64,000 nt of DNA from assembly GCA_021818465.1 (NCBI GenBank), contig JAKAEA010000001.1, positions 375,712 through 439,711 on the forward strand, read 5' to 3'. Positions 15,333 to 62,512 of this stretch are shown here, in pieces. The first letter of the stretch is position 1; every line of letters begins with the position of its first letter. The notes beneath the pieces were generated by a model. The model was not told the DNA's origin and did not search any database. It saw only the letters and a program-made list of their open reading frames with translations. The translations under genes were made by a program, and so were the position numbers. The stretch comes from a bacterium (GTDB lineage: Bacteria > Patescibacteriota > Minisyncoccia > Phycocordibacterales > JAKAEA01).

Positions 15333-18300
15333 ATGAAGTCGTCATCGGAAGCGCGATTTACCGATAGAAAATTAACGCTTCTTGCCGCCACACTTGCGCG
15401 AAAAAACCTTTTGTCTAGAACTGAGAGCAGTTCGCGGCAATTTTTCCATACTCTTAAAAAAGAAATTGATGCTACGCTAACAGCCTACGCTGAACTTGTT
15501 GCTGACGTGAATGCATCTCGGTATGTGAGCCGAGAGGTTGAATGGCTCATGGATAATTTTTATGTCGTAGAATCAGCCGCAGAGGATGTTACGCGATCAC
15601 TGAAGAGCGAAGATATTCAAAAATTACCTTCACTACTAACGAAAGCTGGTACGACGGTGCCGCATGTCTACGATGTGGTGTTTGAATTGCTTCGCGGCAC
15701 TGACAATACTGTTACCACAGAAAATGTATCGGTTTTTTTCAATCGGTATCAGCGGGAATATCCGCTTTCGATTCGTGAAGCCAATGCGATACCACTCATG
15801 CTTAAACTTGTGTTGGTGTTAAATATTCGTGATCTCATCACGTCGTCGCTCGTGTTGGTACGAGAATATTCTGAAGCAGAGGAAATTTTAAAGAAAATTG
15901 ATACGACAACCAAAAAATCGCTCGCGCAAATTTCATATGTGGAAGTGGTTAGTATGCTGACAACGCACTACAAGACGTTGTCGTCGGGATTGGGTGTTTA
16001 TCTTATAGAGCAACTTTCTCAATCTGGTTCGCACATGCGCCCAGTGATTCGTTGGCTTAAGTTGCATTTATTACAACAAGGGGTGAGCATTGAACGATTG
16101 CGAGAAATTGATAATGAGCAACGCGATAAACGTATTTTGGCGGCGGCGAATATTGTTGAGGGATTACGGTGGGTAAGTCAAATTCGCTGGGATGATTTTT
16201 TGGAAAAAATTAATCCTGTAGATGCAATTTTAACGCGTGATCCAGCTCAGCAGTTTGCCATTATGGATAGTCGAAGTAAGAGTGCATATTATCAGCGTAT
16301 TGTGCAATTGGCGGATGGCTCGGGAGTAGCAGATGTGGCCATAGCGCGGCTCGCCGTCAGATTGGCGCGTGCTCATGCCGACGGCGAACCGCGCGCTCCC
16401 GAGGCGCACGTTGGCTATTATCTTGTAGACGATGGCGCCTCTCAGTTAGAAGAGATGATTCATTATCGGCCACCATTTTCTGAGCGTGTGCATCGTTGGA
16501 TTTTGCGCTATCCAACACAGTGTTATTTTTCTCTTATTGCTGCTATAACGGCTATTGTCGGTTATCCACTTTTTTTATGGTTCACAACACAACCGATACC
16601 TGAAATTATACGTCTCTTTGTTGTACTTGCGACGTTACTGCTTTCCATTGATATTGCTCTATCTGTGCTCCATGCTTTTTTGGTGGGAACGTTGCCGGTT
16701 CGACGTCTTTTTAGTTTAGACACACTTGCTACTGGTCTTACCCCCGAACAGGCTACGTGTGTTGTTGTGCCGTCTATGATGCGAAATGTGGCAGCGTTAG
16801 ATGTTTTATTCTCTCGTTTTGAAAGTAATTTTGTCGGCAACCAAAGTACTAATATTTTTTTCATACTACTACTTGATTTTCCTGATGCACCACAAGAAAT
16901 TATGCCAGATGATGGAAAACTTTTAGAAGAGGTGCGCCGGCGTATTCAAGCGCTCAATGAAAAATATCCAACAAAAATTCCAACATTCTACGCTTTGTGT
17001 CGAAAACGAATGTGGAATCAACGTGAAGGAGTGTTTATGGGGTGGGAACGTAAGCGCGGTAAACTTCGTGAGTTCAATAAACTTATTCGTGGCGCGACTA
17101 ATACTAGCTACGTCAATACTGAAGTGCTATCGCTGCCGCGCATCACGTACGCTATTACCTTAGATGAAGATACAGAATTACCACGCGAAGGAGCACATCG
17201 ACTTATCGGGTGCATTGATCATGTGTTGAATCGACCACAACTTACTACCAATCGAATGGTGACGCGGGGGTATGGCATTATCCAACCACGGGCAAGTATG
17301 CGAATGCATGTTGCCAATCAAACTTTTTTTTCACGTCTTTTCTCGACAGCGAGCGGCATTGATTCATACGCGGGACCTAGTGCTGACCTGTATCAAGATC
17401 TTTTTGGAGCTGGTATTTTTTATGGTAAGGGTATCTACGACATTGACGTCGTGGAAACAACTATGGACGATGCTATTCCTGAAAATACAGTATTGAGCCA
17501 TGATTTGCTTGAGGGGTTATACACGCGAGTTGGTTTTGCTTCTCATATTCAAGTGTTTGAGGGTTTTCCGGCCCGTTTTAGTGAGTATTCACTTCGTCAA
17601 CGCCGCTGGATTCGAGGTGATTGGCAAATTATATCTTGGTTGTGGAATCGCTCGGTACACTTTAGTTTTATTGATCGCTGGAAAATTTTTGACAATCTTC
17701 GCCGCAGTGTACAGCCCATTGTGGCAGTTGGATTACTTTTACTGACGGCATTCTACATGCCGCACGCAGTGGTTGCGGTGAGTGTCGCTATTATTGCAAC
17801 CTTTTTCCTTGGCAGTAGCATCGGCATTATATATTCGCTTGTACCGCGTATGCGATTGGGGATTATTAAGAGTATTCTTGCACAATTATTTCGTGGATTA
17901 TTGAGTGAGGTGGTGCGCACCGTAGTTCGAGGTACGCTGCTATTTTATGAAGCGCTCGCCTTGCTTCAAGAAATTGTATTGACCATATTTAGAATGTGTA
18001 TTTCTCACCGCCATTTGCTTCAGTGGCGTACTGCTCACGAGGTGGCTCAAAAATATAAAGGTACAATTATAGAGTACATACGACTCATGGGGGTAGCGAG
18101 TGTTCTGGTATTGGCCATCGGTTGGTTTGTGGTTGTGGTTCATCCCGCATCAGATACGTTTACGTTTTTATTTTGGATTGGTATGTGGTGCTGCGCCCCG
18201 TTTTTTATGTTTTTACTTGGCTTGGTGGCTGTTGAGAAAGAATTTTCAGCACGACAGAAACGATTTTTGCGCACGATGGCGTATCGCAGCCTGCGTTATT

Positions 18301-21300
18301 TTATAGATTTTGCTACAGAAAAAAATAATTACTTAATTCCCGATCATTATCAAGTTGATATTCCGTACAGTGGTTTTGCGCCTGGTACCATGACGTCTAT
18401 TACCAATATTGGCATGATGCTTGCATCTTTTTATTCAGGTCATCGATTGGGATTTATTAGTCAACGAGAACTTCTTGAACGTTTGCGTCGCTCGTGTGAC
18501 ACACTTTCTACACTAGAGCGTTATAAAGGTCATTTTTACAACTGGTACCACATCCATCATCGGCAAGCGGCAATGCCTAAATATATTTCTTCTGTCGATA
18601 GTGCTAATTTTCTTTTTGTTTTAACCGCGCTTATTCAAGGTTTACGTGCTATGCCACAAACCCCCGTGGTGCACGATGGAGCACAAGAAGGATTAGAAGA
18701 CATGTTGAACACCATTAAAGAAGACGCACTCAGCGTGATACGTTCTGGGCCACCCAAGGATATTATTAAATTTATTCGCGCTGTATACGATGGAACGCAC
18801 CGGGCTCTACTTGATGTGCGTAAGTTATCTACAGCGACGCCAAGTTTGTATGCACACATGTTGCGCGAGATGGAATTACGAATGAATCATCTGTGGGAAT
18901 TTATCGAAAATGCACGCGCGCAAAGTGACCATCCTAATGTTGTATATTTGTACGCTAGTATTCAATCCGTTCGTCAGCATATTATAACCAGTCGAGCTGA
19001 AGCGGATACGCTGTTGTCTTTTCATATTTTAGCCAGTGCACGGGAAGCGCGCGGAACAAGTGCACATGGCGGAGGATTGGGCGTTTTTTATCAAAAAATT
19101 GCAACGTTAGCCAATACTATGCCCACGCTTGCCGCATTGGCCGATGGCTACTATTCAAAGGCACTCCAAATGTTAGATGTTGAAACATGTCTTTCTCAAG
19201 CAGCAATTTCTTCCCAAGATCAAGCCTCGATAAAAACATGGTTTACCAATTTACGTACGCGAAGTGCGCAAGCAGAAACAGCGGCCCAAGCAGTACTTGA
19301 AGAGGTGCGGTCTGTACGCGTATTGTGTGAACAGTGGACAAACGAAACCGACTTTACTTTTCTATACAACACTGAGCGCGGTCTTTTTCATATTGGTTAC
19401 AATGTGACGACTGACACTATTGATAATGCCTACTATGATTTTTTGGCTTCCGAATCAAATGCGGTGAGTTTTTGGGCAGTAAGCCGTGGGACGGCGCGCC
19501 TGGAACAATGGTTTCGTTTGAGCCGTCAACTTATTAGTCATGAAGGTGTTGATACAGCGTTAGCCTCGTGGGGTGGATCGCTCTTTGAATATTTAACGTC
19601 ACTCCTATTCTTAAACGTAGCACCCACAAGTATTCTGAATGAAGCAGCGCGCCGAGCTATTCATTCTCAACGAGCGTATGCGCGACAAAAACATGTTCCG
19701 TGGGGTATGGGTGAATCGGCTTTTGCGATTCGCCACCCCAATGGCGACTATCAATATCAAATTTTCGGTGACCCTGGGCTTGGCTTGAAACGAGGATTAG
19801 GTGAACGGCTCGTTGTTGCGCCATATACCACAGCTCTTTCGCTTTCCTACACAGGTGTTGCTGGTATACGAAATCTTAAGAAACTTATCACAGAAGGATG
19901 TTGGGGAATATATGGATTTTTTGATGCAATTGATTATACCGAAAGTGCCGGAGTCTTTTTTAAAAAAAGGGGAGTACCGGTAAAAATTTACTATGCGCAT
20001 CATCTTGGTTTTACTATTGCAGCAATTACTAATGTTCTCACCAATGATGTGCTCAAGGAGCTTTTTCATCGCGATCCACACATGCATTCCGTTGATGTTA
20101 TTTTAGATGAACAATATCCTGTTGCAGTTCCACTGCCGCACGCACATGATCAATTAGCATCTGAACGTCAGTGGAAACTACTGCACCGACCAACAAAAGG
20201 CGTGGTGGAATATGTACCTATTGTTTCTGATCACTCGTATCGTTACGCTGTTTTGTCTAATGGCACTTATACACTCACTATCAATAATTCTGGTGGTGGT
20301 TGGAGTTCGTATCGAGATACGTTGCTTACGCGCCAATCACTCGATCCGTTAGAAAGTCGTTGTGGTAATTTTATATACCTGCGTGACGTAAAATCAGGGG
20401 CAGTGTGGTCGACGACCTATGTGCCAACCTTTTCCAAAGGTGCTCGAGCTCGAACGATGTTTTCCGATGATAAGGTAGAATTTCATCAGCTACAAAATAC
20501 CATTCAAAGTACAGTGGTTATTTCGGTAGCCACTGACGAACCGGTGGAAATGCGAACTGTGACGCTCACGAATGTTGGTACTACGCCGCGCACGCTCGAT
20601 GTGACAAGTTATGGAGAAGTGGTGCTCGCAAAATCTGAAGAGTATCTGCAGCATCCGTCATTTCAAAAAATGTTTGTCAGCTCTGCGTTTCATAGCAATG
20701 TTGCTGCTATTGTTTTTTCGAAACGTTCATCGAATGATGCTAAAAGTACCATTAGTTTATTTCATTCAGTGGTAAGTCATTATCGTGATAGAACAAATGC
20801 AGTTGCTAGTTTGGCGCGCGAAGATTTTCTTGGTCGGCACGGCTCATTGATTGCACCGCCTGGCAGTACACCGAGTTTTACTCCTGTTGAACATCCGGAA
20901 CACACGCTTGATCCTATTTTTTCTTTGAGTAAACGAGTAACCTTAGGAGCGGGGCAATCAGTATCTCTCTCGTTTATTACTGGTGTTGCTGCCACGAATG
21001 AAGCGGCACTTCGACTGGCAACAAAGTATCAGAAAATTCGCATTCCATTTCGTTATGCAGAACTTTTTCATCGACCGGCGCGCACTATTGATGCTCTGGG
21101 CAGTATAGGCGTTACGCCATATCATCTTGAATTATTTCAGCGATTACTCTCGGGAATCATTTCTTTTGAATTTTGTCAGTATCTTCCCGAACAACTTTTT
21201 AGTGGCGCATCATATATGCGCACACTTTGGAAATATGGCATATCCGGCGATCGACCTCTTGTGGTGGTACGTATTTCCAATGCCGGCGATATTCCTTTTG

Positions 21301-24074
21301 TGCGCACAGTGTTGCTCTTGTATCGATATTGTCAACATAAAAACGTGGCGATTGATCTCGTTATCCTTAATGAGTACCCGGCAGGTTACGTAAAGACTTT
21401 TGAAGATGATATTGGTTTACTCATTCGTCAACTAACGACACCAGATACTAATTCTGAACAAGGTTCCGTGTTCCATCTTAAAACTGTATTGATGGATACC
21501 GCTGATGTTACATTGATACGTGCACTGAGTCGTCTGTGGTTGGATAGTAATAAAGGCTCATTAGAAAAACAAATAAAAGAGCTCACCGCTCCCAACATAC
21601 ATCCTCTGCCTGCTAAGTTTAAAGCAACAAAAGCAGCTACATTTAAAAAAGAAGAACTTGCTCGACCGCGCAATCTTTTGTTTGCTAATAGTATTGGAGG
21701 TTTTGATGAGCATCGGGGGGAATATGTTATGTACCTCTCAAAAAATAGTCGTACACCAGTGCCTTGGGTTAATGTTATTGCCAACGAATATTTTGGTACA
21801 GTAGTCACGGAAAGTGGTGCCGCAACAACATGGTCGGATGATAGTTTTGATAATCGTTTAACACCCTGGCAAAACGATTCGCTGGTAGATCGCTCAGGTG
21901 AGTCATTATATCTGCGCGATGAAGAAACGGGTACGGTTTGGAGTCCAACACCTTCGCCAAGCAAAATAGGGAATCCGTATATTGTGCGTCATGGAACGGG
22001 GTATAGCGTGTTCGAATCTCTTTCGTTTGAAATTAAAACGAATCTTGTTGTGTTCGTGCCACGTCGCGATCGAATAAAAGTACACATACTCACGCTTACT
22101 AATACTGGTGAACGCGAGCGACGTGTCTCATTAACGACATACGTAGAACCAGTTCTCGGCACATTCAGAGAAAAAACTCGGGTACATGTTGCTGTGCGAC
22201 GAGATTCTGCATCGGGAGTTATGCTAGCTCAAAATAGATTTCGTCCTCAGTTTTTTGAACGGTGTATGTTTGTTGATAGTGGTCCAGATAGTGCGTACAC
22301 CTCAGATCGACGTGAATTTTTGGGCGCTCATGGACGTATTGACGCGCCAGTCGCGTTGCGGCGCGAAACATTATCCAATACGCTTGGCCACACTGATGCT
22401 TGCATTGCACTTTCTCGTACCGTGACAGTGGCCCCGGGCCAGTCGGTGGAGTTGGTGGTGACTATTGGCGAAGCTGCGGACACTGCACAAGCAATTGCCA
22501 TCGCACAACAGTATCGATCACTAGATGTATCCAAAGCTGCACTAACCGACGTGCAAGATTTTTGGAATTCTGAACTCAACGCTCTTACTTTTACAACACC
22601 TGATGCGGCGATTAATCTTTTGGCTAACCGTTGGCTTCTCTATCAAGCGCTCTCGTCCCGTATGTTTGCCAAAACTGGTTTTTATCAACCCTCCGGTGCT
22701 TTTGGTTTTCGCGATCAACTTCAAGATATGGCGGCATTTGTGTGGAGTAATCCAGCACGTTTTCGAGAGCATATTATAACTGCGGCGCGACACCAATTTC
22801 GTGAAGGTGACGCTCTTAATTGGTGGCATACGCATAATAATTTCGGTGTTCGCAGTACTATTGTCGATCACCACGCTTGGTTACCGTGGGCGGTGAGTTT
22901 GTATGTGATAGCCACCAATGATCGAACGATTTTGGATGAGCACGTTGCATTTTTAGAATCGCCCGTAGCCATTACTGCGATTAACAAACGATGGGCAGGC
23001 ATACCACAACAAACTTCAGAAACAGCTACCGTGTATGAACACTGCATTCGAGCAATTGAAAAAAGTCTTGTGTTTGGAGCGCACGGGTTACCGCTGATGG
23101 GCGGTGGCGACTGGAATGACGGTCTGAATCGTGTCGGTGATGGCGGTCGCGGGGAAAGTGTGTGGTTTGCGTGGTTCCTTATTCATATCTTGTCACACTT
23201 TATTCTTATTGCCGAACAAGTTGGTGACAGCGAAAAGGTTCAGCGGTACAAAACAATTACCAACGACCTTCACACAGCTATCGAAAAGCGTGCCTGGGAT
23301 GGCGCTTGGTACTACCGCGCTTTTCTTGATAGTGGTGCGCCACTCGGTTCTTCAACGAACCGTGAATTTAAAATAGATTCTATTGCTCAATCGTGGTCGG
23401 TTCTTTGTGGGTACGGCGATCGTGAGCGCAGCGTTAAAGCCCTCGCTTCTGTTAAAGAAAAATTGATGGCCGATGGCGATTCTATTCGTCTCATTGATCC
23501 ACCGTTGGATAAGATGACCATCGATGTTGGTTATTTAGCGGCCTATCCGCCAGGTGTACGAGAAAATGGTGCTCAATATAATCATGCCGCGCTTTGGGCT
23601 ATTCAAGCGTTTGCGCTTTTAGGTGACGCAGACGCAGTAGAGGAAGGTTTGCGTCGTATTAATCCAATCATCCGTTCTGATTCTAAAGAAAAAGTAATGA
23701 CCTATCGTGTGGAACCGTATGTTATCGCTTCCGATATTTACACTGCACCATCGTATCCTGGTCGGGGTGGTTGGACATGGTATACCGGTTCAGCGGGTGT
23801 TTTGTATCGCACACTCGTTGAATATATTTATGGAATGCGAAAAACGGGCAACACGCTTTCGTTTCGACCATCATTACCACGCTCGTGGAATGAGTGCAGT
23901 CTTGTGTATCGCTATGGACAAGCGATCTATAAAATCACTATACATCGTGACCCGCATGCCACGGAAAAAATTTCCATCACTCTTGATGGGCAAAAAATGT
24001 CTGGAGACAGTGTACTATTGTCTGATGAGCGGGGAGAACGAAATATTGACGTTTTGGTGTCTAATGTGCTATAA
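15333..24074 (+). CDS. Cyclic beta-1,2-glucan synthase-like giant protein (NdvB/Cgs/ChvB family; GT2/GT84 processive glycosyltransferase plus C-terminal GH94-like phosphorylase domain), 2913 aa
   Basis: A single 8.7 kb ORF. TM helices at about aa 395-470 and 790-960. GT2 motifs DxD (TLDEDTELP) and Q(R/Q)xRW (LRQRRWIRGDWQ). The C-terminal region carries the GH94 catalytic signature GGGDWNDGLNRVG. The length and order match Brucella/Rhizobium Cgs/NdvB. Confidence 0.8.
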   Translation: MKSSSEARFTDRKLTLLAATLARKNLLSRTESSSRQFFHTLKKEIDATLTAYAELVADVNASRYVSREVEWLMDNFYVVESAAEDVTRSLKSEDIQKLPSLLTKAGTTVPHVYDVVFELLRGTDNTVTTENVSVFFNRYQREYPLSIREANAIPLMLKLVLVLNIRDLITSSLVLVREYSEAEEILKKIDTTTKKSLAQISYVEVVSMLTTHYKTLSSGLGVYLIEQLSQSGSHMRPVIRWLKLHLLQQGVSIERLREIDNEQRDKRILAAANIVEGLRWVSQIRWDDFLEKINPVDAILTRDPAQQFAIMDSRSKSAYYQRIVQLADGSGVADVAIARLAVRLARAHADGEPRAPEAHVGYYLVDDGASQLEEMIHYRPPFSERVHRWILRYPTQCYFSLIAAITAIVGYPLFLWFTTQPIPEIIRLFVVLATLLLSIDIALSVLHAFLVGTLPVRRLFSLDTLATGLTPEQATCVVVPSMMRNVAALDVLFSRFESNFVGNQSTNIFFILLLDFPDAPQEIMPDDGKLLEEVRRRIQALNEKYPTKIPTFYALCRKRMWNQREGVFMGWERKRGKLREFNKLIRGATNTSYVNTEVLSLPRITYAITLDEDTELPREGAHRLIGCIDHVLNRPQLTTNRMVTRGYGIIQPRASMRMHVANQTFFSRLFSTASGIDSYAGPSADLYQDLFGAGIFYGKGIYDIDVVETTMDDAIPENTVLSHDLLEGLYTRVGFASHIQVFEGFPARFSEYSLRQRRWIRGDWQIISWLWNRSVHFSFIDRWKIFDNLRRSVQPIVAVGLLLLTAFYMPHAVVAVSVAIIATFFLGSSIGIIYSLVPRMRLGIIKSILAQLFRGLLSEVVRTVVRGTLLFYEALALLQEIVLTIFRMCISHRHLLQWRTAHEVAQKYKGTIIEYIRLMGVASVLVLAIGWFVVVVHPASDTFTFLFWIGMWCCAPFFMFLLGLVAVEKEFSARQKRFLRTMAYRSLRYFIDFATEKNNYLIPDHYQVDIPYSGFAPGTMTSITNIGMMLASFYSGHRLGFISQRELLERLRRSCDTLSTLERYKGHFYNWYHIHHRQAAMPKYISSVDSANFLFVLTALIQGLRAMPQTPVVHDGAQEGLEDMLNTIKEDALSVIRSGPPKDIIKFIRAVYDGTHRALLDVRKLSTATPSLYAHMLREMELRMNHLWEFIENARAQSDHPNVVYLYASIQSVRQHIITSRAEADTLLSFHILASAREARGTSAHGGGLGVFYQKIATLANTMPTLAALADGYYSKALQMLDVETCLSQAAISSQDQASIKTWFTNLRTRSAQAETAAQAVLEEVRSVRVLCEQWTNETDFTFLYNTERGLFHIGYNVTTDTIDNAYYDFLASESNAVSFWAVSRGTARLEQWFRLSRQLISHEGVDTALASWGGSLFEYLTSLLFLNVAPTSILNEAARRAIHSQRAYARQKHVPWGMGESAFAIRHPNGDYQYQIFGDPGLGLKRGLGERLVVAPYTTALSLSYTGVAGIRNLKKLITEGCWGIYGFFDAIDYTESAGVFFKKRGVPVKIYYAHHLGFTIAAITNVLTNDVLKELFHRDPHMHSVDVILDEQYPVAVPLPHAHDQLASERQWKLLHRPTKGVVEYVPIVSDHSYRYAVLSNGTYTLTINNSGGGWSSYRDTLLTRQSLDPLESRCGNFIYLRDVKSGAVWSTTYVPTFSKGARARTMFSDDKVEFHQLQNTIQSTVVISVATDEPVEMRTVTLTNVGTTPRTLDVTSYGEVVLAKSEEYLQHPSFQKMFVSSAFHSNVAAIVFSKRSSNDAKSTISLFHSVVSHYRDRTNAVASLAREDFLGRHGSLIAPPGSTPSFTPVEHPEHTLDPIFSLSKRVTLGAGQSVSLSFITGVAATNEAALRLATKYQKIRIPFRYAELFHRPARTIDALGSIGVTPYHLELFQRLLSGIISFEFCQYLPEQLFSGASYMRTLWKYGISGDRPLVVVRISNAGDIPFVRTVLLLYRYCQHKNVAIDLVILNEYPAGYVKTFEDDIGLLIRQLTTPDTNSEQGSVFHLKTVLMDTADVTLIRALSRLWLDSNKGSLEKQIKELTAPNIHPLPAKFKATKAATFKKEELARPRNLLFANSIGGFDEHRGEYVMYLSKNSRTPVPWVNVIANEYFGTVVTESGAATTWSDDSFDNRLTPWQNDSLVDRSGESLYLRDEETGTVWSPTPSPSKIGNPYIVRHGTGYSVFESLSFEIKTNLVVFVPRRDRIKVHILTLTNTGERERRVSLTTYVEPVLGTFREKTRVHVAVRRDSASGVMLAQNRFRPQFFERCMFVDSGPDSAYTSDRREFLGAHGRIDAPVALRRETLSNTLGHTDACIALSRTVTVAPGQSVELVVTIGEAADTAQAIAIAQQYRSLDVSKAALTDVQDFWNSELNALTFTTPDAAINLLANRWLLYQALSSRMFAKTGFYQPSGAFGFRDQLQDMAAFVWSNPARFREHIITAARHQFREGDALNWWHTHNNFGVRSTIVDHHAWLPWAVSLYVIATNDRTILDEHVAFLESPVAITAINKRWAGIPQQTSETATVYEHCIRAIEKSLVFGAHGLPLMGGGDWNDGLNRVGDGGRGESVWFAWFLIHILSHFILIAEQVGDSEKVQRYKTITNDLHTAIEKRAWDGAWYYRAFLDSGAPLGSSTNREFKIDSIAQSWSVLCGYGDRERSVKALASVKEKLMADGDSIRLIDPPLDKMTIDVGYLAAYPPGVRENGAQYNHAALWAIQAFALLGDADAVEEGLRRINPIIRSDSKEKVMTYRVEPYVIASDIYTAPSYPGRGGWTWYTGSAGVLYRTLVEYIYGMRKTGNTLSFRPSLPRSWNECSLVYRYGQAIYKITIHRDPHATEKISITLDGQKMSGDSVLLSDERGERNIDVLVSNVL

Positions 24075-46560: not shown

Positions 46561-46633
46561 GGGCCCATAGCTCAGTTGGTAGAGCGCCCGCTTTGCAAGC
46601 GGGAGGTCAGCGGTTCGAACCCGCTTGGGTCCA
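46561..46633 (+). tRNA. tRNA-Ala (anticodon TGC)
   Basis: GGGCCCATAGCTCAGTTGGTAGAGC, anticodon loop TTTGCAA, G3:U70, acceptor TGGGTCC plus A. Confidence 0.8.
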
Positions 46634-46669
46634 CCGCACGTAATGCCAGCACCAGATTGCACAACCTTC

Positions 46670-46743
46670 GGGCCTATAGTCTAGTAGTACGACGCGGCAT
46701 TCGCATTGCCGAGGCGGGGGTGCGATTCCCCCTAGGTCCACCA
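46670..46743 (+). tRNA. tRNA-Ala (anticodon CGC), CCA encoded; atypical T-loop
   Basis: Acceptor GGGCCTA/TAGGTCC with G3:U70, anticodon stem-loop CGGCA TTCGCAT TGCCG. The T-loop reads TGCGATT, with G at position 55. Confidence 0.55.
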
Positions 46744-46744
46744 T

Positions 46745-46818
46745 CGGGCTGTAGTATAACGGTAGTATACACGCATGGGGTGCGTGCGGCCCGGGTTCAA
46801 TTCCCGGCAGCCCGACCA
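46745..46818 (+). tRNA. tRNA-Pro (anticodon GGG), CCA encoded
   Basis: A C1:G72 acceptor (CGGGCTG/CAGCCCG), anticodon loop ATGGGGT, T-arm CCGGGTTCAATTCCCGG. It starts 1 nt after the preceding tRNA. Confidence 0.75.
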
Positions 46819-54328: not shown

Positions 54329-55375
54329 ATGACTACCCCACACCAACCTCCGCTCACTAGCTTCAAACCGAAGCACGTTACCGATCGGTTGCTTTCTGTG
54401 TTACCGGAACGAGCCAAAGATGTTATGGTGTCTCGCTATGGTTTGGGGAAAAATACCGAACGCTTAACTCTCGATGCTATTGGGAAAAAATATAAAATTA
54501 CTCGTGAACGCGTTCGCCAGATTGAAAATCACGCTCTCATTACTATTAGAAAATCAAAAGAATACGAAAAAGAACGGAAGACTTTTGAAGAATTAGAAGA
54601 GGCTGTTAAAAAACTCGGTGGTATTATTTCAGAATCTGATCTTCTGAAGGAACTTTCAAAAGATCCGAGTGTTCATAATCATCTTAATTTTTTGCTCATC
54701 ATAGGTGAGTCATTTAAACGAAAAAAAGAAGATGATTATTTTCAACACCGTTGGTATATGGACGATCAGCTTTCCGATAAAGTACACACGGCCCTGCACA
54801 AACTTTACGAAAACCTTTCTGATGACGATTTAATTTCTGAGCAAGATATTTTACAGTCATTCTTAACGCATCTCAAAGAAGTTTCCGACGAATATAAAAA
54901 AGAGGAAATTTTACGACGCTGGCTCTCTCTTTCTAAAGCAATTTCTAGAAATCCTCTAGGTGAATGGGGCCGAAGTGCTAGTTCGAACGTACACGCTAAA
55001 GGTATGCGTGATTATGCGTTTTTAGTTATTCGTAAACACGGTTCTCCCATTCACTTTACAGAAGTTGCTAAGCAAATTGAAAAACTTTTTAAACGTAAAG
55101 CTCATGTTGCGACCACGCACAACGAACTCATTAAAGATCCACGTTTTGTGCTCGTTGGTCGCGGTCTGTATGCACTCTCGGAATGGGGTTATATTTCTGG
55201 CGTAGTAAAAGATGTTATTCGAAAAATTTTGGAACAAAATGGTCCAATGACAAAAAGTGAAATTGTAGACAAAGTACTTAAAGAACGTTACGTTAAAGAA
55301 AATACCATTATGGTTAATTTACAGAATCCTAAATTTTTCAAAAAAGACAAGGACGGTCGTTACTATTTGGTATAG
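54329..55375 (+). CDS. DNA-binding protein with sigma-70 region-4-like HTH (N-terminal) and HARE-HTH-like domain (C-terminal)
   Basis: An N-terminal ERLTLDAIGKKYKITRERVRQIENHALITIRK (sigma r4-like) and a C-terminal GSPIHFTEVAKQI..ATTHNELIKDPRFVLVGRGLYALSEWGY (HARE-HTH pattern). Confidence 0.45.
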   Translation: MTTPHQPPLTSFKPKHVTDRLLSVLPERAKDVMVSRYGLGKNTERLTLDAIGKKYKITRERVRQIENHALITIRKSKEYEKERKTFEELEEAVKKLGGIISESDLLKELSKDPSVHNHLNFLLIIGESFKRKKEDDYFQHRWYMDDQLSDKVHTALHKLYENLSDDDLISEQDILQSFLTHLKEVSDEYKKEEILRRWLSLSKAISRNPLGEWGRSASSNVHAKGMRDYAFLVIRKHGSPIHFTEVAKQIEKLFKRKAHVATTHNELIKDPRFVLVGRGLYALSEWGYISGVVKDVIRKILEQNGPMTKSEIVDKVLKERYVKENTIMVNLQNPKFFKKDKDGRYYLV

Positions 55376-55433: not shown

Positions 55434-56684
55434 ATGAATGCATTCTGGTTAACAGTGAAGCCGCTGCTCTGGCAGGTCTGGTCACTCTTTGTTGCTTTGT
55501 ATCCACTGTGGGTGCCGATTGTCTTGGCTATTATTTTATGGGATGTGTGGGTTGAATATGTACGAGTAAAAAATTGGGCAAAGCAAAAATATGTTCTTTT
55601 GGAAATCCGTTTACCACAAGAAATTGTTAAATCGCCACGAGCGATGGAAGTCGTCATTAATTCTCTGTATAACACGGGTGGGGAAGGGAATTTTATGTTG
55701 CGATACTGGCAAGGAAACACTCGACCAACATTCTCTCTAGAAATTGTTTCTGACGCTGGCCATATTCGTTTCTTATTGTGGACACGAGAAAATTTACGCA
55801 ATTATGTAGAATCACAAATTTATGCCCAATATCCAGAAGTAGAAATTCATCAAGTTGAAGATTACGCCACACAATTGGTTTTTGATCCTAAACAAAATTC
55901 CGTGTGGGGGTGTCGCTTTGAATTAGCAGCCGATACGCCGCTTCCTATTGCTTCGTACGTTGACTACGGTCTGGATCTAGATAAAAATCCTAAAGAAGAA
56001 TTCAAAATCGATCCTTTGGCGCAGGTATTGGAACTTCTCAATACCGTAAAACCGGGCGAACACATGTGGTTACAGATTGTTATTCGAGCTCACAAAAATG
56101 AGAAGCGAGGGGGTGCGTTTTCAGAAGCTAGTGATTGGCGTAAGGAAATTCGTAAAACTCGCGATGCAATTTTTGAAGCAATTAAAAAAGAAGGGCGCAT
56201 TGCAGGTACAACAAACGAAATAACCACAGTGACCGCTCTTGGCCGCGCATACCAAAAATATCCCTTCGATTGTGGCATCAGAGGTTTGTACATTGTAGAT
56301 GATAAAAGTAAATTTAGTGTGCCAATGATTGGCACACTCACGAGTTTATTGAGACCTTTTAGTTATTCCGCTTCCACCTTCAAAAAAGCCTTTAAAGAAG
56401 ATACCCTTGCTGGTTTTAATGGTTTTAAAGTTGCTGGCGGCACAGGGTTAGACTATCCATGGCAAGATTTTAAAAATTGGCGTACTAACAAAATGCGCCG
56501 ACGTATAGTAAATCAATACAAACGTCGCGCTTTCTTCTGGCCGCCATATAAAGAAAAAACCTTCGTACTTACCAGCGAATCGCTTGCGACTATATACCAC
56601 TTTCCCGGTGAGACCGCTGCTGCTCCAGGTCTGGAACGTATTCCCTCAACACGTGCCCAAGCTCCCAGTAATTTACCGATATAA
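55434..56684 (+). CDS. Hypothetical membrane-anchored protein (416 aa)
   Basis: N-terminal TM helices and a large soluble domain with no recognised motif. Confidence 0.3.
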   Translation: MNAFWLTVKPLLWQVWSLFVALYPLWVPIVLAIILWDVWVEYVRVKNWAKQKYVLLEIRLPQEIVKSPRAMEVVINSLYNTGGEGNFMLRYWQGNTRPTFSLEIVSDAGHIRFLLWTRENLRNYVESQIYAQYPEVEIHQVEDYATQLVFDPKQNSVWGCRFELAADTPLPIASYVDYGLDLDKNPKEEFKIDPLAQVLELLNTVKPGEHMWLQIVIRAHKNEKRGGAFSEASDWRKEIRKTRDAIFEAIKKEGRIAGTTNEITTVTALGRAYQKYPFDCGIRGLYIVDDKSKFSVPMIGTLTSLLRPFSYSASTFKKAFKEDTLAGFNGFKVAGGTGLDYPWQDFKNWRTNKMRRRIVNQYKRRAFFWPPYKEKTFVLTSESLATIYHFPGETAAAPGLERIPSTRAQAPSNLPI

Positions 56685-57697: not shown

Positions 57698-58768
57698 ATG
57701 AATAGTAAGAAACAAAAAGTTTTTGTCGGTCTTTCCGGCGGAGTGGATAGTTCTGTTTCTGCAGCACTTTTACAGCGAGCTGGGTATGATGTTACAGGAG
57801 TATTTATTAAAGTCTGGAGTCCGGATTGGTTGCCGTGCACATGGCGAGAGGAGCGCCGCGACGCGATGCGCGTCGCGGCGCATCTTAATATTCCATTTTT
57901 AACATTTGATTTTGAAGATATATATAAACACGCTGTCGTCGATTATCTATTAGCAGAATACCAGCGCGGTCGAACACCTAATCCTGACGTTCTCTGTAAT
58001 AAGGAAGTAAAATTCGGTGCCTTTTTCAAAGAGGCGCGTCGTCGCGGTGCAGATTATATTGCCACTGGTCATTATGCTCAAAATTTATATAAAAACGGTA
58101 AGCATCATCTTTTTGAAAGTATCGACAAGGAAAAAGATCAATCATATTTTTTGTGGACCATATCGCAAGGAACACTACAACGAGTATTGTTTCCTGTGGG
58201 AAACTTACACAAGAGACAGGTGCGCGATCTAGCAAAAAAATTTAATCTTCCTACAGCAGCCAAAAAAGATAGCCAGGGAATTTGTTTTTTAGGACAGATA
58301 GACATGAAAGAATTTCTGGCACACTATATTTCACCGCAGCGTGGCATCGTACTCGACACGCGGGGTCATGCCATAGGGTGGCATCCGGGTGCATTATTTT
58401 TTACGCTCGGTGAACGACACGGCTTTACCATAACCGATCAAAATGCTCGCCACGAACCCCACTACGTTAGTGCCAAAGATATGATCCATAATACTATAAC
58501 TGTTGCACCGCACCAAGTCCAAGTACCAGATACGGCTATTTCTCAGGTACATCTAGAAACACCGCATTGGATATCTGGTGAGGCACCCGTAACAGATACA
58601 ACATACGCGGCTCGTTGGCGATATCGACAACAGACAACACCATGCCGTATCACAATCGATACGCGTACAAATATTTTTTTTGAAACACCCCAAAAACACA
58701 TTCCCCCCGGACAATCACTCGTACTATATAAAGATTCAGAATGTCTTGGCGGCGGTATCCTGTTATAA
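57698..58768 (+). CDS. mnmA: tRNA-specific 2-thiouridylase
   Basis: The PP-loop VGLSGGVDSSV, catalytic Cys residues and a C-terminal beta-barrel. Confidence 0.85.
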   Translation: MNSKKQKVFVGLSGGVDSSVSAALLQRAGYDVTGVFIKVWSPDWLPCTWREERRDAMRVAAHLNIPFLTFDFEDIYKHAVVDYLLAEYQRGRTPNPDVLCNKEVKFGAFFKEARRRGADYIATGHYAQNLYKNGKHHLFESIDKEKDQSYFLWTISQGTLQRVLFPVGNLHKRQVRDLAKKFNLPTAAKKDSQGICFLGQIDMKEFLAHYISPQRGIVLDTRGHAIGWHPGALFFTLGERHGFTITDQNARHEPHYVSAKDMIHNTITVAPHQVQVPDTAISQVHLETPHWISGEAPVTDTTYAARWRYRQQTTPCRITIDTRTNIFFETPQKHIPPGQSLVLYKDSECLGGGILL

Positions 58769-58776
58769 TGATAGCT

Positions 58777-59628
58777 ATGTCCGAACAAATTCTTGTCACC
58801 AAAACCGACGGCACCAAAGAACCTTTCAATGAAGAGAAGTTGGCCGTTTCATTACGACGTTCTCGCGCTTCCGCTGTAACTATCCAAGCCGTACTTGATC
58901 ATGTGCGTAAGGAAATCCGCGAAGATATGACAACACACCATATCTACCAACACGCTCTTGATGTACTCCATAAAATTCAGAAGAGCGCCGCAATCAGCTA
59001 CTCGTTACGACGCGCCATTGCTGATCTTGGTCCATCTGGTTTTCCGTTTGAAAAATTTATAGCTGAAATATTTAAACAGCGCGACTACAAAATACTAACC
59101 GATCAAACTGTTGTTGGTGGTTGTGTCGAGCACGAAGTTGATATTGTTGCTTGGAAACCTGTCGACGATCTTGTTATGGTAGAAGCAAAATTTCATAATC
59201 AACCCGGTTTAAAATGTGATTTAAAAGTGGCACTGTATGTCAAAGCTCGTTTTGATGATTTAGCCAAAGCAACATTTACGTATGACGATCACCACTATCG
59301 TTTAGGTGCTGGTTGGCTTGTGACAAATACAAAATTCACCAGTAGCGCTATTAAATACGCCGAATGCCAAACAATGACCATTATCGGTTGGAGTTATCCG
59401 CACAAAGGCAATTTGCAAGATTTAGTTGAATCGGCCCATCTCCATCCACTAACGTGTTTACGTCTTTTAAGCGAGCACGATAAGAAAACTCTATTGGGGC
59501 AGGGTATCGTACTTTGTCGAGATCTAGAGAAAAATCCTACACTTTTACGTACTCTAGGACTCGCTGAACTCAATATTGAAGCAATTCTTTCAGAAATCAG
59601 TCACATTTACGCCGAAAAAACACCATAA
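58777..59628 (+). CDS. ATP-cone domain fused to Mrr-like (restriction endonuclease-type PD-(D/E)XK) domain
   Basis: An N-terminal ATP-cone (ILVTKTDGTKEPFNEEKLAVSLRRS..). A middle Mrr_cat-like core (FEKFIAEIFKQRDYKILTDQTVVGGCVEHEVDIVAWK..VMVEAKFH) with D..E.K spacing. I placed the start at ATG 58777; TATAAT sits within the last mnmA codons. Confidence 0.55.
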   Translation: MSEQILVTKTDGTKEPFNEEKLAVSLRRSRASAVTIQAVLDHVRKEIREDMTTHHIYQHALDVLHKIQKSAAISYSLRRAIADLGPSGFPFEKFIAEIFKQRDYKILTDQTVVGGCVEHEVDIVAWKPVDDLVMVEAKFHNQPGLKCDLKVALYVKARFDDLAKATFTYDDHHYRLGAGWLVTNTKFTSSAIKYAECQTMTIIGWSYPHKGNLQDLVESAHLHPLTCLRLLSEHDKKTLLGQGIVLCRDLEKNPTLLRTLGLAELNIEAILSEISHIYAEKTP

Positions 59629-59711
59629 CAACACAAATTTTTAATATCGGCTATTGCCCTGGCTTTTCTGAGGGGGCTATAATAGGTATTATTTATTAAA
59701 TCACCGCTTTT

Positions 59712-60422
59712 ATGGATAACTCTCAATCGTCTGGACAAAAACAAAACCAGCAGCAACAGCCACAACAGAAACCAATACAACAACATCAACCACAATTAAA
59801 TCTCAATCAGAAACCAGTACAGAAATTTCAACAAACTAATACACCATCACAACCCATTAAACCGACTGCGAATAAAAATGTTTCAGCCGCACCGACCCCA
59901 TCACCGGCTATGCAAGTTGCTGCCGCCTTTGTTGTCGGTATTCTCGTTGGTGTTATTGGCTATTCACTGGTCAACAAAAACCCTAACGTAAACACTGCAC
60001 TAAATACCCAATCGGCTTCTTCAACTATTTCTCTACAAAATAGTAATCAAATTAGCCCAACGAGCGCCGATGAAATCGTCAATCCCACATCAGTTAGCGA
60101 CAATAGCGTTATTGTGCATAGCCAACCAGCTGGAGCTAGTGTTGCTCTTTCACAAGTAGACCTTAAAAACGGCGGTTGGGTCGCTATTCAAGAAAACGCC
60201 GCTGGCACTCCTGGAGTTATTCTGGGTGCCGCGTATTTTGACGCCGGTCAGACTCTTAACGGCACCGTATCACTCTTGCGACCCACAGTCGCCGGTACAT
60301 CTTATTTTGCTGTGATTCACACTGATGATGGTACCAAACCACGTGTGTTTAATTATCACACTGACACTATTCTCAATGACAGTGCTGGTAATCCTATTGA
60401 CGCTTCCTTTACCGCACAATAA
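59712..60422 (+). CDS. Membrane-anchored protein with Gln/Pro-rich N-terminal tail and extracytoplasmic domain
   Basis: QKQNQQQQPQQKPIQQHQPQ low-complexity sequence, one TM (AAFVVGILVGVIGYSLV) and a beta-rich C-terminus. Confidence 0.35.
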   Translation: MDNSQSSGQKQNQQQQPQQKPIQQHQPQLNLNQKPVQKFQQTNTPSQPIKPTANKNVSAAPTPSPAMQVAAAFVVGILVGVIGYSLVNKNPNVNTALNTQSASSTISLQNSNQISPTSADEIVNPTSVSDNSVIVHSQPAGASVALSQVDLKNGGWVAIQENAAGTPGVILGAAYFDAGQTLNGTVSLLRPTVAGTSYFAVIHTDDGTKPRVFNYHTDTILNDSAGNPIDASFTAQ

Positions 60423-61009: not shown

Positions 61010-61885
61010 ATGTCTCATTTTGACGCTACGCGCCGAAAATTTATTTTCAATCCCACTTCGCGTGAGCCTTTTAAGGTCAGTCGCTCAAAAATTGATCTCT
61101 TTATGGAGTGTCCGCGCTGTTTTTACTTGGATGCGCGCCATGGAGTTAGTCGCGTTCGTGGACCATCATTTACGTTAAACGTTGCTGTTGACGCGCTCCT
61201 CAAGAAAGAATTTGATGTGCACCGCGCCGCGGGTACCACGCATCCGCTTATGAAAGCCTACGGTCTTGATCTGGTACCATTCCAGCATCCCGATATGGAT
61301 ATTTGGCGAGAAAATTTTAAGGGCGTACAGTATCTCTACAAACCGGCCAACATACTTGTCACTGGCGCTGTTGATGATGTGTGGGTTAATAAAGTCGGTG
61401 AGCTTATTGTTGTTGATTACAAAGCCACCGCCAAACAGGGGAGACTGGAAACGTTGAGTGATACTACATGGGAACGCCAGTATCGCCGACAGATGGAAAT
61501 ATATCAGTGGCTCCTGCGTCAAAATGGTTTCAATGTTTCTTCCACCGGCTACTTTCTTTATGTTAATGGCAAAAAAGATGCCGCGGCTTTTGACGGTAAA
61601 CTTGAATTTGAAACCACACTCATTCCACACAATGGCGACGACAGTTGGATTGAAAAAAGTCTTATGCTCCTGAAGCACTGTCTCGTCGACGAGCGTCTTC
61701 CTGAAGCGGCTCCCACCTGTGAACATTGTCAATATTTGGAAAAATATTTAAACGTTTTACGCAATCGCGCATCCAAAAAAGATTCGACTACCACTAAACC
61801 TACCACCAAACCTAAAAAAAATCCGACTAAAAAATCGAAAACTACCGCCGTGACTCGTCCCGAGGGAAAATTATTTGATATGTAA
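61010..61885 (+). CDS. Cas4-like PD-(D/E)XK nuclease with Fe-S cluster cysteines and Lys/Thr-rich tail (no CRISPR context)
   Basis: An N-terminal CPRC, motif II D, motif III VVDYKATAK, a QxxxY (RRQMEIYQW) and a C-terminal CEHC. This is the RecB/Cas4-family arrangement. Confidence 0.55.
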   Translation: MSHFDATRRKFIFNPTSREPFKVSRSKIDLFMECPRCFYLDARHGVSRVRGPSFTLNVAVDALLKKEFDVHRAAGTTHPLMKAYGLDLVPFQHPDMDIWRENFKGVQYLYKPANILVTGAVDDVWVNKVGELIVVDYKATAKQGRLETLSDTTWERQYRRQMEIYQWLLRQNGFNVSSTGYFLYVNGKKDAAAFDGKLEFETTLIPHNGDDSWIEKSLMLLKHCLVDERLPEAAPTCEHCQYLEKYLNVLRNRASKKDSTTTKPTTKPKKNPTKKSKTTAVTRPEGKLFDM

Positions 61886-61906: not shown

Positions 61907-62512
61907 ATGTTCACCGTCGAAGAACGACATAACGCTATGAAAAAAATTCGCGACGAAGTGGTAGCTTTGAAAGACTCGCCACTTTATGCCTTTCGCATCA
62001 AAAATGGAGCGCTCCCTGTTATCGGTGAAGGTAGCCATGCGGCAAAAATCATGTTCATCGGCGAAGCGCCAGGCGTACACGAAGCAAAAACTGGTCGGCC
62101 ATTCGTGGGAGCAGCAGGAAAATTTCTTAATGAGCTTCTGGAAAGCGTCGGTGCACAACGTAATGATGTCTACATCACCAACATTGTCAAAGATCGGCCA
62201 CCAGAAAATCGCGACCCTACGCCACACGAAATTGCTACGTACGGCCCATTCTTAGATCGGCAAATAAACATCATTCAACCGCGCGCCATCGTCACGCTCG
62301 GCCGCTTTTCTATGTATTACATTATGCGTACACTGCATGTAGACTTTAACAGTGAACCAATTTCAAAATCGCACGGCAAAACCTATATCGCCCAAACACC
62401 TTTTGGCGAACTCTCCATTCTCACTATGTATCATCCGGCGGCGGCACTCTATAATGGTGCTATGCGCGACGTTCTTAAAAAAGACTTTGCGATTGTTAAA
62501 AAATTTCTGTAG
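61907..62512 (+). CDS. Uracil-DNA glycosylase, family 4
   Basis: GEGSHAAKIMFIGEAPGVHEAKTGRPFVGAAGKFL, a Thermus-type UDG signature. Confidence 0.8.
   Translation: MFTVEERHNAMKKIRDEVVALKDSPLYAFRIKNGALPVIGEGSHAAKIMFIGEAPGVHEAKTGRPFVGAAGKFLNELLESVGAQRNDVYITNIVKDRPPENRDPTPHEIATYGPFLDRQINIIQPRAIVTLGRFSMYYIMRTLHVDFNSEPISKSHGKTYIAQTPFGELSILTMYHPAAALYNGAMRDVLKKDFAIVKKFL

Follow-up and report, generated by a model that had tools for sequence, protein, structure and literature searches.

In ribonucleotide reductases (RNRs) of several classes and in NrdR, ATP-cones bind either ATP or dATP, with two nucleotides bound in some instances, and rearrange oligomers; in NrdR, the formation of DNA-binding tetramers depends on the ATP/dATP load. 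RNRs and NrdR are so far the only settings in which ATP-cones have been studied, in each case as modules that turn the ATP/dATP ratio into oligomer changes. As for nucleases, the closest described protein is AF1548 of Archaeoglobus fulgidus (PDB entry 1Y88), whose Asp, Glu and Lys residues equivalent to D122, E136 and K138 of the protein described here were predicted to be catalytic from the structure (GOS paper). Here we describe gene X, located in a 64,000-nucleotide stretch of a Patescibacteria genome (contig JAKAEA010000001.1; this whole stretch is hereafter referred to as the window). Its product combines an ATP-cone, an AF1548-type PD-(D/E)XK nuclease and an HhH-like C-terminal domain (Table 1), and is an ordinary member of a large catalogued family, a partial structure of which entered the PDB in 2004. 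The fusion of ATP-cone and nuclease is what defines this family, which is already represented in Pfam, NCBI and the PDB.

The N-terminus of the gene X product scores 29.4 bits against the Pfam ATP-cone model PF03477 (gathering score 25.8, E=1.2e-6), and its central region 35.3 bits against Mrr_cat, PF04471 (gathering score 21, E=1.4e-8). Because both profiles exceed the Pfam curated thresholds, the cone match is not sub-threshold and the central region does not lack a PD-(D/E)XK fold; both domain calls made in the preliminary description of this DNA – an N-terminal ATP-cone and an Mrr_cat-type PD-(D/E)XK core – are therefore correct, far beyond chance. The whole-protein AlphaFold model, built on 39 homologues, has a predicted local distance difference test score (pLDDT) of 92.3 and a predicted template-modelling score (pTM) of 0.85, the latter suggesting that the domains adopt a defined arrangement in the modelled protein. 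The cone is modelled with pLDDT of ~90 as two strands (residues 6–8 and 14–16) followed by four helices (residues 19–28, 33–46, 53–67 and 69–82). A Foldseek search matches it to the ATP-cones of NrdR (E ~1e-3, root-mean-square deviation of 1.9–2.3 Å over 81–84 columns) and to those of RNRs as well, and phmmer against PDB sequences returns weak matches to NrdR cones (E ~0.04). The PHROGs matches to the gene X product also fall on the RNR cone region.

Conservation was counted in 150 aligned representatives, each standing for one cluster at 50% identity. The cone signature is kept: K9 is found in 145 of the representatives, G12 in 147, F17 in 135 (with Tyr in a further 11), K21 in 142, T53 in 132 (with Ser in a further 11) and Y75 in 140. 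The residues of the nucleotide-contact signature, namely the hairpin Lys, the helix-1 Lys, the helix-3 Thr/Ser and the aromatic or basic residue of the last helix, are thus all present in the gene X cone. Archaeal members carry the canonical VxKRDGxxExF motif.

The nuclease core appears intact in sequence. The PD-(D/E)XK signature reads E92 ... D122 ... E136-x-K138, and E92, E120, D122, E136, K138, R158 and D161, along with F91 and G114, are invariant in 150/150, as is the TNTKF motif (residues 183–187) of the same domain. The modelled core has an alpha-beta-beta-beta-alpha-beta order (helix 91–101, strands 105–113, 118–127 and 131–138, helix 149–162, strand 178–183). Foldseek ranks 1Y88 at the top (E=6e-14, TM-score 0.71 when normalised on the target), followed by the nuclease domains of MspJI, AspBHI, NucS/EndoMS and the CARF nucleases Cdn1, Can2 and Card1.

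Cone and nuclease are joined by an LGPxGFxFE motif, which is invariant between Patescibacteria and archaea; G85 and G88 are each kept in 149 representatives, F91 and E92 in all 150. This linker connects the last helix of the ATP-cone directly to helix alpha-1 of the nuclease and ends in the first catalytic Glu, thus providing a short physical path from the sensor to the active site. Elsewhere in the core, Cys116 and Cys197 co-vary perfectly, with both being Cys in 145 representatives and both absent in the other five, a pattern which suggests that the two, adjacent to the active site, may form a disulfide, share a metal site or pack tightly against each other.

The third domain (~residues 206–283) had been overlooked in the preliminary description. 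PF22357 (AF1548-like_C) scores 13.9 bits at residues 224–276, below its gathering score of 23.9, and the alignment to 1Y88 spans the domain up to residue 275; in the archaeal orthologue P0121 the same model scores 93 bits, with weak HHH_5 and HhH-GPD matches in the same place. Modelled alone, the domain has a pLDDT of 83, and Foldseek returns weak matches (E 0.6–7, TM-score 0.5–0.63), many of which are HhH/SAM-like DNA-binding modules: Pol kappa and iota, the N-terminal domains of RAD51 paralogues and RadA, the C-terminal domain of the RNA polymerase alpha subunit (RNAP alpha-CTD), BAF and LigA. The domain is probably an (HhH)2/SAM-like DNA-binding module. In SCOP, the AF1548 C-terminal domain presumably falls under 'Rad51 N-terminal domain-like'.

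Residues 94–275 of the gene X product match 1Y88 in phmmer with E=5.8e-28, and the similarity to AF1548 and its orthologues is significant with the C-terminal domain included, which places the protein in the AF1548 family; identity to three-domain archaeal members is 33–39% over the full length. The 199-residue 1Y88 chain aligns from the nuclease domain onward only. A search with the crystallised part of AF1548 retrieved P0121, a 265-residue protein that is 99% identical and consists of ATP-cone, Mrr_cat and AF1548-like_C. As this near-identical protein carries the ATP-cone, 1Y88 represents a cone-less fragment of the same family, and both the PDB entry and the original AF1548 gene model appear to be N-terminally truncated, be it in the gene model or in the construct.

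A word-indexed search yielded more than 6,500 relatives of the gene X product. The best 120 of these come from Patescibacteria, are 273–315 residues long and share the architecture, with the exception of two PemK fusions of 444–447 residues; most are unnamed or annotated as 'ATP cone domain-containing protein' or 'restriction endonuclease', and some annotation pipelines label family members 'NrdR family'. An exhaustive HMMER search through 1.84 billion cluster representatives found 419 clusters (50% identity) at E <=1e-30, and among the best 150 of these, 146 have alignments that start no later than residue 9, so that the cone is included in those members. The same architecture is found in the archaeal Archaeoglobi, Korarchaeota, Bathyarchaeia, Aenigmarchaeota, Nanoarchaeota and Altiarchaeales, and in cultured Bacteroidota of the genera Mesonia, Aequorivita, Arenibacter, Zunongwangia, Winogradskyella, Sphingobacterium and Myroides (~36% identity to the gene X product). 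No relatives were found in IMG/VR and no viral whole-architecture proteins among the BFVD predicted structures; the matches in BFVD and PHROGs cover single domains only. In Candidatus Taylorbacteria (locus L011, 581–1915; proteins P0097 and P0102) a PemK/MazF-like toxin open reading frame (ORF) reads in frame into gene X, which yields the two products of 444–447 residues; the Met of gene X itself is kept at ~residue 166, and at least two assemblies, independent of each other, contain the arrangement. It could be a true fusion or the result of a lost stop codon.

To place gene X in its genomic context in Paceibacteria, we compared 80 species-level genome loci with 48–83% identity, or 82 when two identical contigs are counted in. 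In the source genome, which is of Paceibacteria type, gene X is located on a 549-kb contig, and the genes around it are all co-directional and of housekeeping type. MnmA is encoded directly upstream on the same strand in 75/82 loci, mostly abutting or overlapping gene X, and the block comprising the sigma-r4/HARE-HTH gene, DUF8128, MltG/YceG, MnmA and gene X is kept in ~60–66 loci, with AlaRS ending the block in 58. A family-4 uracil-DNA glycosylase (UDG) is encoded within ~4 genes downstream in 49–55/80 loci and a PDDEXK_1 ('Cas4-like') gene nearby in 10–12/80. The slot directly 3' of gene X varies, being occupied by M3 peptidases (17 loci), HD_3/YfbR-like genes (15), UDG (13), MgtC (10) or PDDEXK_1 (8). 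Median identity to the protein encoded in the window is 51.6% for the gene X product, 53.0% for MnmA, 56.2% for UDG and 38% for MltG: gene X diverges as slowly as MnmA and behaves like a housekeeping gene in Paceibacteria. The HD_3/YfbR-like gene, which is of the 5'-deoxynucleotidase type and follows gene X directly in the 15 loci mentioned (e.g. L022, 6831–7445) while being absent from our window, is a possible link to deoxynucleotide metabolism.

At greater distance, the context dissolves. For 77 diverse metagenome loci, a Pfam scan of the 212 proteins encoded on either side of gene X revealed no neighbour family that occurs more than 4 times in 117 (one gene away from gene X) or 3 times in 95 (two genes away), and neither a DNA methyltransferase nor a defence gene is a prominent neighbour in these loci; the flanking genes are ordinary metabolic and translation genes, with ThiI present in 2–3 loci. 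Since no neighbour recurs across the 77 loci, gene X is best described as having a stand-alone function. The neighbours include CorA in Ferroglobus, a Cu-ATPase in Bacteroidota and, in 15 loci of Patescibacteria, MgtC; a link to ion transport was considered on this account and dropped, as no neighbour recurred more than four times. In Ferroglobus the order is CorA, gene X, DUF389, with overlapping stops and starts. In Geoglobus a permease-Usp fusion ends 2 nucleotides upstream of gene X, and MerR, TiaS and Hjc are encoded downstream (Hjc at 2 kb). In other archaea the neighbours are DJ-1/PfpI, glutamate-synthase-like genes and thioredoxin reductase.

Two Bacteroidota arrangements deserve description in their own right. 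In Flavobacteriaceae (L095–L099; Arenibacter, Winogradskyella, Mesonia) gene X is part of a conserved, co-directional cluster of archaeal flavour, which runs Usp, NDH-2-like protein, permease, archaeal type II GAPDH, class I FBP aldolase, ATP-PFK, dehydrogenase, tandem Usp (with its stop 2 nucleotides before gene X), gene X, beta-CASP (aCPSF1-like) nuclease, archaeal-type 'putative thymidine phosphorylase', PRPP synthetase and Cu P-type ATPase. The phosphorylase scores 601 bits against TIGR02645, with the AMP-phosphorylase model just under its cut-off. The cluster looks like an island for stress or energy limitation and nucleotide salvage, which we take as a hint only. In Sphingobacteriia and Myroides (L089–L094, also in metagenomes) an identical 'MULTISPECIES' copy of gene X resides on an RteC-bearing island resembling a conjugative transposon, where it follows GAPDH-II and aldolase within a copper-resistance operon (CusA/OEP/CusB, DUF305, Cu P-type ATPase and multicopper oxidase). 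This points to recent horizontal spread of gene X between Bacteroidota classes. Both Bacteroidota arrangements suggest stress or energy limitation together with the catabolism or salvage of nucleotides, again as hints only.

We consider it about an even bet (probability of roughly 0.5) that gene X encodes a housekeeping-type, stand-alone, Mg2+-dependent PD-(D/E)XK DNA endonuclease that is switched by adenine nucleotides. The domains, the fold, the residue conservation, the family-wide fusion, the slow divergence, the synteny and the lack of a conserved partner are the observations from which this proposal starts. The N-terminal ATP-cone would set the activity according to the adenine nucleotide that it binds (ATP versus dATP, and possibly also ADP or AMP), most likely through a changed oligomeric state, as in RNRs and NrdR. 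The signal would travel through the invariant linker that bears the first catalytic Glu; the central domain would cut DNA by means of E92, D122, E136 and K138, and the C-terminal HhH-like domain would hold the DNA without sequence specificity. The protein might then tie the cutting of DNA, be it for repair or for DNA turnover and salvage, to the nucleotide or energy status of the cell. The parts that we infer are the binding of nucleotides, the switch in oligomeric state with its direction, the DNA substrate and the physiological role; because the nuclease core appears intact and the cone signature residues are kept, a nuclease gated by ATP/dATP may reasonably be proposed by analogy.

Several points weigh against this proposal. 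Most members in Patescibacteria lack the Arg of KRDG in the cone and have K(A/S/T)(S/D/N)G instead, although E. coli NrdR is likewise devoid of this Arg in the alignment, and the mapping of the NrdR outer-site Tyr, which is involved in ATP/dATP discrimination, onto the gene X product is ambiguous. The HhH assignment is based on non-significant fold matches (E >=0.6). The conserved synteny in streamlined Patescibacteria may come from low rearrangement rates and not from function. Usp adjoins gene X in Flavobacteriaceae and Geoglobus and is not recurrent in the 77 metagenome loci, and the hints from the Usp, nucleotide and energy context are lineage-specific, and hints only. Finally, our literature search found no experimental or biochemical study of the AF1548 family or of the fusion.

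How do other explanations fare against the same evidence? Were the cone merely a structural or oligomerisation module lacking a physiological nucleotide switch, gene X would encode an ordinary repair or recombination nuclease, structure- or lesion-specific in the manner of Hjc or NucS. The Foldseek matches to NucS/EndoMS fit this explanation, as do the HhH-like tail, which is shared with many repair proteins, the weak Hjc matches in archaeal members (E=0.0026 for P0121; PF01870 is also listed for P0142 and P0146), and the synteny in Paceibacteria, where UDG is frequently and PDDEXK_1 occasionally encoded nearby. That the cone contacts K9, K21, T53 and Y75 have been kept across two domains of life is hard to reconcile with a structural module, though; Geoglobus retains a separate Hjc 2 kb downstream of gene X, and the association with UDG is gone outside Paceibacteria. 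We therefore regard an ordinary repair nuclease as unlikely. Defence, to which the preliminary description had tentatively assigned the gene, is decidedly unlikely in our view. A type IV-like or abortive-infection effector cutting DNA when a phage perturbs the pool of ATP or deoxynucleoside triphosphates would be in keeping with the characterised relatives of Mrr_cat and with the closest structures from outside the family, MspJI and AspBHI, all of which are modification-dependent restriction enzymes, and the CARF nucleases Can2, Card1 and Cdn1 share the logic of ligand sensor plus PD-(D/E)XK nuclease. Furthermore, the island of Sphingobacteriia and Myroides bears a giant N6_Mtase-helicase gene 7 kb away from gene X, and there is the PemK/MazF-like ORF that reads into gene X in a few Taylorbacteria. 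However, no PADLOC model matches the gene X product in the search of this defence-system catalogue; relatives are absent from IMG/VR, with single-domain matches only in BFVD and PHROGs; Pfam detects no DNA-modification reader (Mrr_N, SRA or winged helix), and a methyltransferase partner is missing. Instead of a defence-island context, gene X occupies a fixed housekeeping locus in 75/82 Paceibacteria loci and diverges like MnmA, it is flanked by ordinary genes of metabolism and translation in the 77 distant loci, and the Bacteroidota island copy sits in a copper-resistance operon and not beside the restriction gene.

The fusion could also be read as a non-cleaving nucleotide sensor, a DNA-binding regulator analogous to NrdR in which the restriction fold and the HhH module replace the Zn-ribbon. 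An ATP-cone combined with a DNA-binding module is indeed the logic of NrdR, to which family some pipelines assign the members by name, and in several lineages genes for transporters and stress proteins adjoin gene X within operons (1–4-nucleotide overlaps, 2-nucleotide gaps). Loss of the catalytic residues is the norm in inactivated restriction-fold DNA binders, whereas here all four, along with E120, R158 and D161, are present in 150/150; with no Zn-ribbon and a TIGR00244 score of 18.3 bits against a cut-off of 124.65, we deem such a regulator very improbable. Very improbable, too, is a nuclease directed at RNA, which would turn over or process RNA under energy stress. It would make sense of the RNA-related neighbours, that is, MnmA in Patescibacteria, ThiI in the few metagenome loci, the aCPSF1-like beta-CASP nuclease in Flavobacteriaceae and the PemK/MazF read-through, but such neighbours are weak, lineage-specific evidence, the characterised proteins closest in fold are without exception DNA-cutting enzymes, and HhH-type modules typically bind double-stranded DNA.

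Going a step further than the adenine nucleotide-switched endonuclease that we favour, gene X might encode the first enzyme outside ribonucleotide reduction with ATP-cone-switched catalysis: a nucleotide- or energy-gated DNase that cleaves, in repair or deoxynucleotide salvage, only at particular ATP/dATP or adenylate-charge levels, and that is conserved in Patescibacteria, in many lineages of archaea and in marine Flavobacteriaceae. We put this forward tentatively, as an idea that is more doubtful than not. If true, it could be a core link of nucleotide supply to genome maintenance in ultra-small, auxotrophic cells. Genuine gating would define a new class of allosterically controlled nuclease and offer a handle on the tie between DNA metabolism and nucleotide supply in organisms with reduced genomes, such as Patescibacteria and the archaeal Nanoarchaeota, Aenigmarchaeota and Altiarchaeales; if the gating is not real, gene X adds one more uncharacterised restriction-fold nuclease. 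The cultivable members in Flavobacteriaceae and Sphingobacterium make the question experimentally approachable.

Coordinates of gene X, of its parts and of the neighbouring features discussed are collected in Table 1.

Table 1. Features of gene X and its surroundings in the window (positions are numbered from the first letter of the window).
Feature	Position	Strand	Remarks
Gene X, whole ORF	58777..59628	+	283 aa; open; stop TAA 59626-59628
ATP-cone	58792..59016	+	Residues 6-80; beta-hairpin then four helices; PF03477
Linker motif L-G-P-S-G-F-P-F-E	59026..59052	+	Residues 84-92; ends in first catalytic Glu, E92
Mrr_cat / PD-(D/E)XK core	59038..59382	+	Residues 88-202; PF04471
Catalytic residues D122, E136, K138	59140-59142, 59182-59184, 59188-59190	+	Predicted by homology to AF1548
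Cys116 / Cys197	59122..59124 / 59365..59367	+	Co-varying pair
C-terminal helical domain, AF1548-like_C	59392..59625	+	Residues 206-283; 1Y88 alignment
Alternative in-frame ATG	58768..58770	+	Overlaps mnmA stop (TAATG); would give 286 aa
mnmA (tRNA 2-thiouridylase)	57698..58768	+	Pfam; conserved upstream neighbour of gene X
TATAAT hexamer	58764..58769	+	In sequence; judged a chance match
Promoter-like site TTGCCC-18-TATAAT	59654..59683	+	Between gene X and next gene; 10/12 consensus matches
PDDEXK_1 nuclease, two CxxC pairs	61010..61885	+	PF12705, 45.4 bits; occasional syntenic neighbour
Family-4 uracil-DNA glycosylase	61907..62512	+	TIGR00758, 191 bits vs 125

The gene X product is 100% identical to the public protein P0001, which is called from the alternative ATG and thus comprises 286 residues. 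The N-termini of homologues suit the start at 58777 at least as well, and the alignment is not decisive between the two starts. Gene X is present once in the window, its product scoring 103 bits with a family-specific hidden Markov model of the cone; a scan of the window with this model detected neither a second copy nor another ATP-cone protein. As the mnmA stop ends at 58768, the spacer to gene X amounts to 8 nucleotides and not to 9, as had been stated, and the two genes are probably co-transcribed. The TATAAT reported at the 3' end of mnmA is there as a hexamer, but it lacks support as a promoter: it has no -35 partner, and the region contains 7 promoter-like sites versus 6.5 +/- 2.6 expected from shuffles, and we therefore consider it a chance match. 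The promoter-like site located between gene X and the next gene suggests, on the basis of its consensus match, that the genes downstream form a unit separate from gene X.

The family-4 UDG that the preliminary description had noted downstream of gene X is confirmed by its TIGR00758 score. The accompanying 'Cas4-like Fe-S nuclease' within 3 kb is borne out as a PDDEXK_1 gene with four Cys residues (CxxC...CxxC), but not as Cas4: the Cas4 models are sub-threshold (17.5 bits vs 22.7 for PF01930 Cas_Cas4, 23.7 vs 65 for TIGR00372), only the generic PDDEXK_1 profile passes, and there are no cas genes near it. Nor is a small DNA-processing cluster of these genes with gene X supported. The synteny is lineage-specific, with UDG frequent beside gene X in Paceibacteria only and not recurrent in the 77 distant loci, the Cas4-like gene rare, and the slot after gene X variable; in the window itself, gene X is separated from this pair by two unrelated genes, encoding DUF7282 (with its own promoter-like site) and MgtC.

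Some further features of the window were noted in passing. The product of the gene that follows gene X (59712–60422) has an N-terminus of low complexity, rich in Gln and Pro, and also contains a hydrophobic segment and a DUF7282 domain; the gene is conserved near gene X in the closest relatives only (4 loci). The best-conserved gene of the local block, with a median identity of 66% across Paceibacteria, is 54329–55375; with an N-terminal sigma-70 region 4 followed by a HARE-HTH domain (similar to the delta subunit of RNA polymerase), its product may be an unusual RNA-polymerase-associated factor. The adjacent 55434–56684 (416 residues) adjoins MltG in 66/82 loci and is assigned to DUF8128 by a weak precomputed match, with no match in the Pfam and NCBIfam scans of the window. 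A single ORF of 2,913 residues occupies 15333–24074 on the forward strand. A tight cluster of tRNA genes, Ala-TGC, Ala-CGC and Pro-GGG, is located at 46561–46818; the whole window contains six tRNAs, and all other Rfam families stay below their gathering scores in it.

Compared with known systems, gene X is closest to AF1548/1Y88, which is of the same family and has the same Asp/Glu/Lys residues and C-terminal domain, the full-length orthologue P0121 having the same ATP-cone as well. The differences are in identity (~34–36%), in the cone motif (KRDG in archaeal cones versus K(A/S/T)(S/D/N)G in those of Patescibacteria) and in the deposited chain, which comes from a structural-genomics entry with no functional study and lacks the cone. 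Two nuclease families that share the fold were considered and set aside: Hjc, since PF01870 yields no match at E <=1 in the gene X product and remains sub-threshold in P0121 (18.1 vs 21.1 bits), and NucS/EndoMS, the match to which is confined to ~120 columns of the nuclease core with a TM-score of ~0.3.

With Mrr, MspJI and AspBHI gene X has in common the Mrr_cat-type catalytic domain and the organisation as a single-gene system with no methyltransferase. Where these enzymes carry a reader of modified DNA (winged-helix or SRA-like), gene X has an ATP-cone; it possesses an extra HhH-like tail and is found in a housekeeping context, not in the defence-island pattern. Assignment to type IV restriction was rejected given that there is no reader domain, no PADLOC match and no defence-island or variable context. 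The CARF/SAVED nucleases Can2, Card1 and Cdn1 resemble gene X in coupling an N-terminal sensor of a nucleotide-derived ligand to a restriction-fold nuclease, and their nuclease domains are structural neighbours of the gene X core. Their sensor is unrelated, however: it is a Rossmann-like CARF domain recognising cyclic oligoadenylates, whereas that of gene X is a four-helix cone of the type that binds ATP/dATP, and would by analogy do the same. Can2, Card1 and Cdn1 are accessories of type III CRISPR systems, while gene X has no CRISPR or defence context.

NrdR, like the gene X product, is a DNA-directed protein with an ATP-cone at its sensing end, and the two cones are homologous; it provides the mechanistic precedent, with ATP/dATP occupancy switching oligomers and thereby DNA engagement. 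It differs in having a Zn-ribbon and a C-terminal cone; gene X has no Zn-ribbon, an N-terminal cone and, judging from its residues, a catalytically intact nuclease as effector. Membership in NrdR was rejected because the cone region alone aligns to TIGR00244, at the score given above, and the protein starts directly with the cone; there is no evidence for an NrdR-box at gene X. Our literature search retrieved no study of an ATP-cone controlling a nuclease. In RNRs (NrdA, NrdD and Leeuwenhoekiella NrdB), by comparison, the N-terminal ATP-cone, the fold of which matches that of gene X, is the master switch of the enzyme and acts through quaternary structure; the regulated enzyme is a reductase there, and in gene X it is a nuclease.

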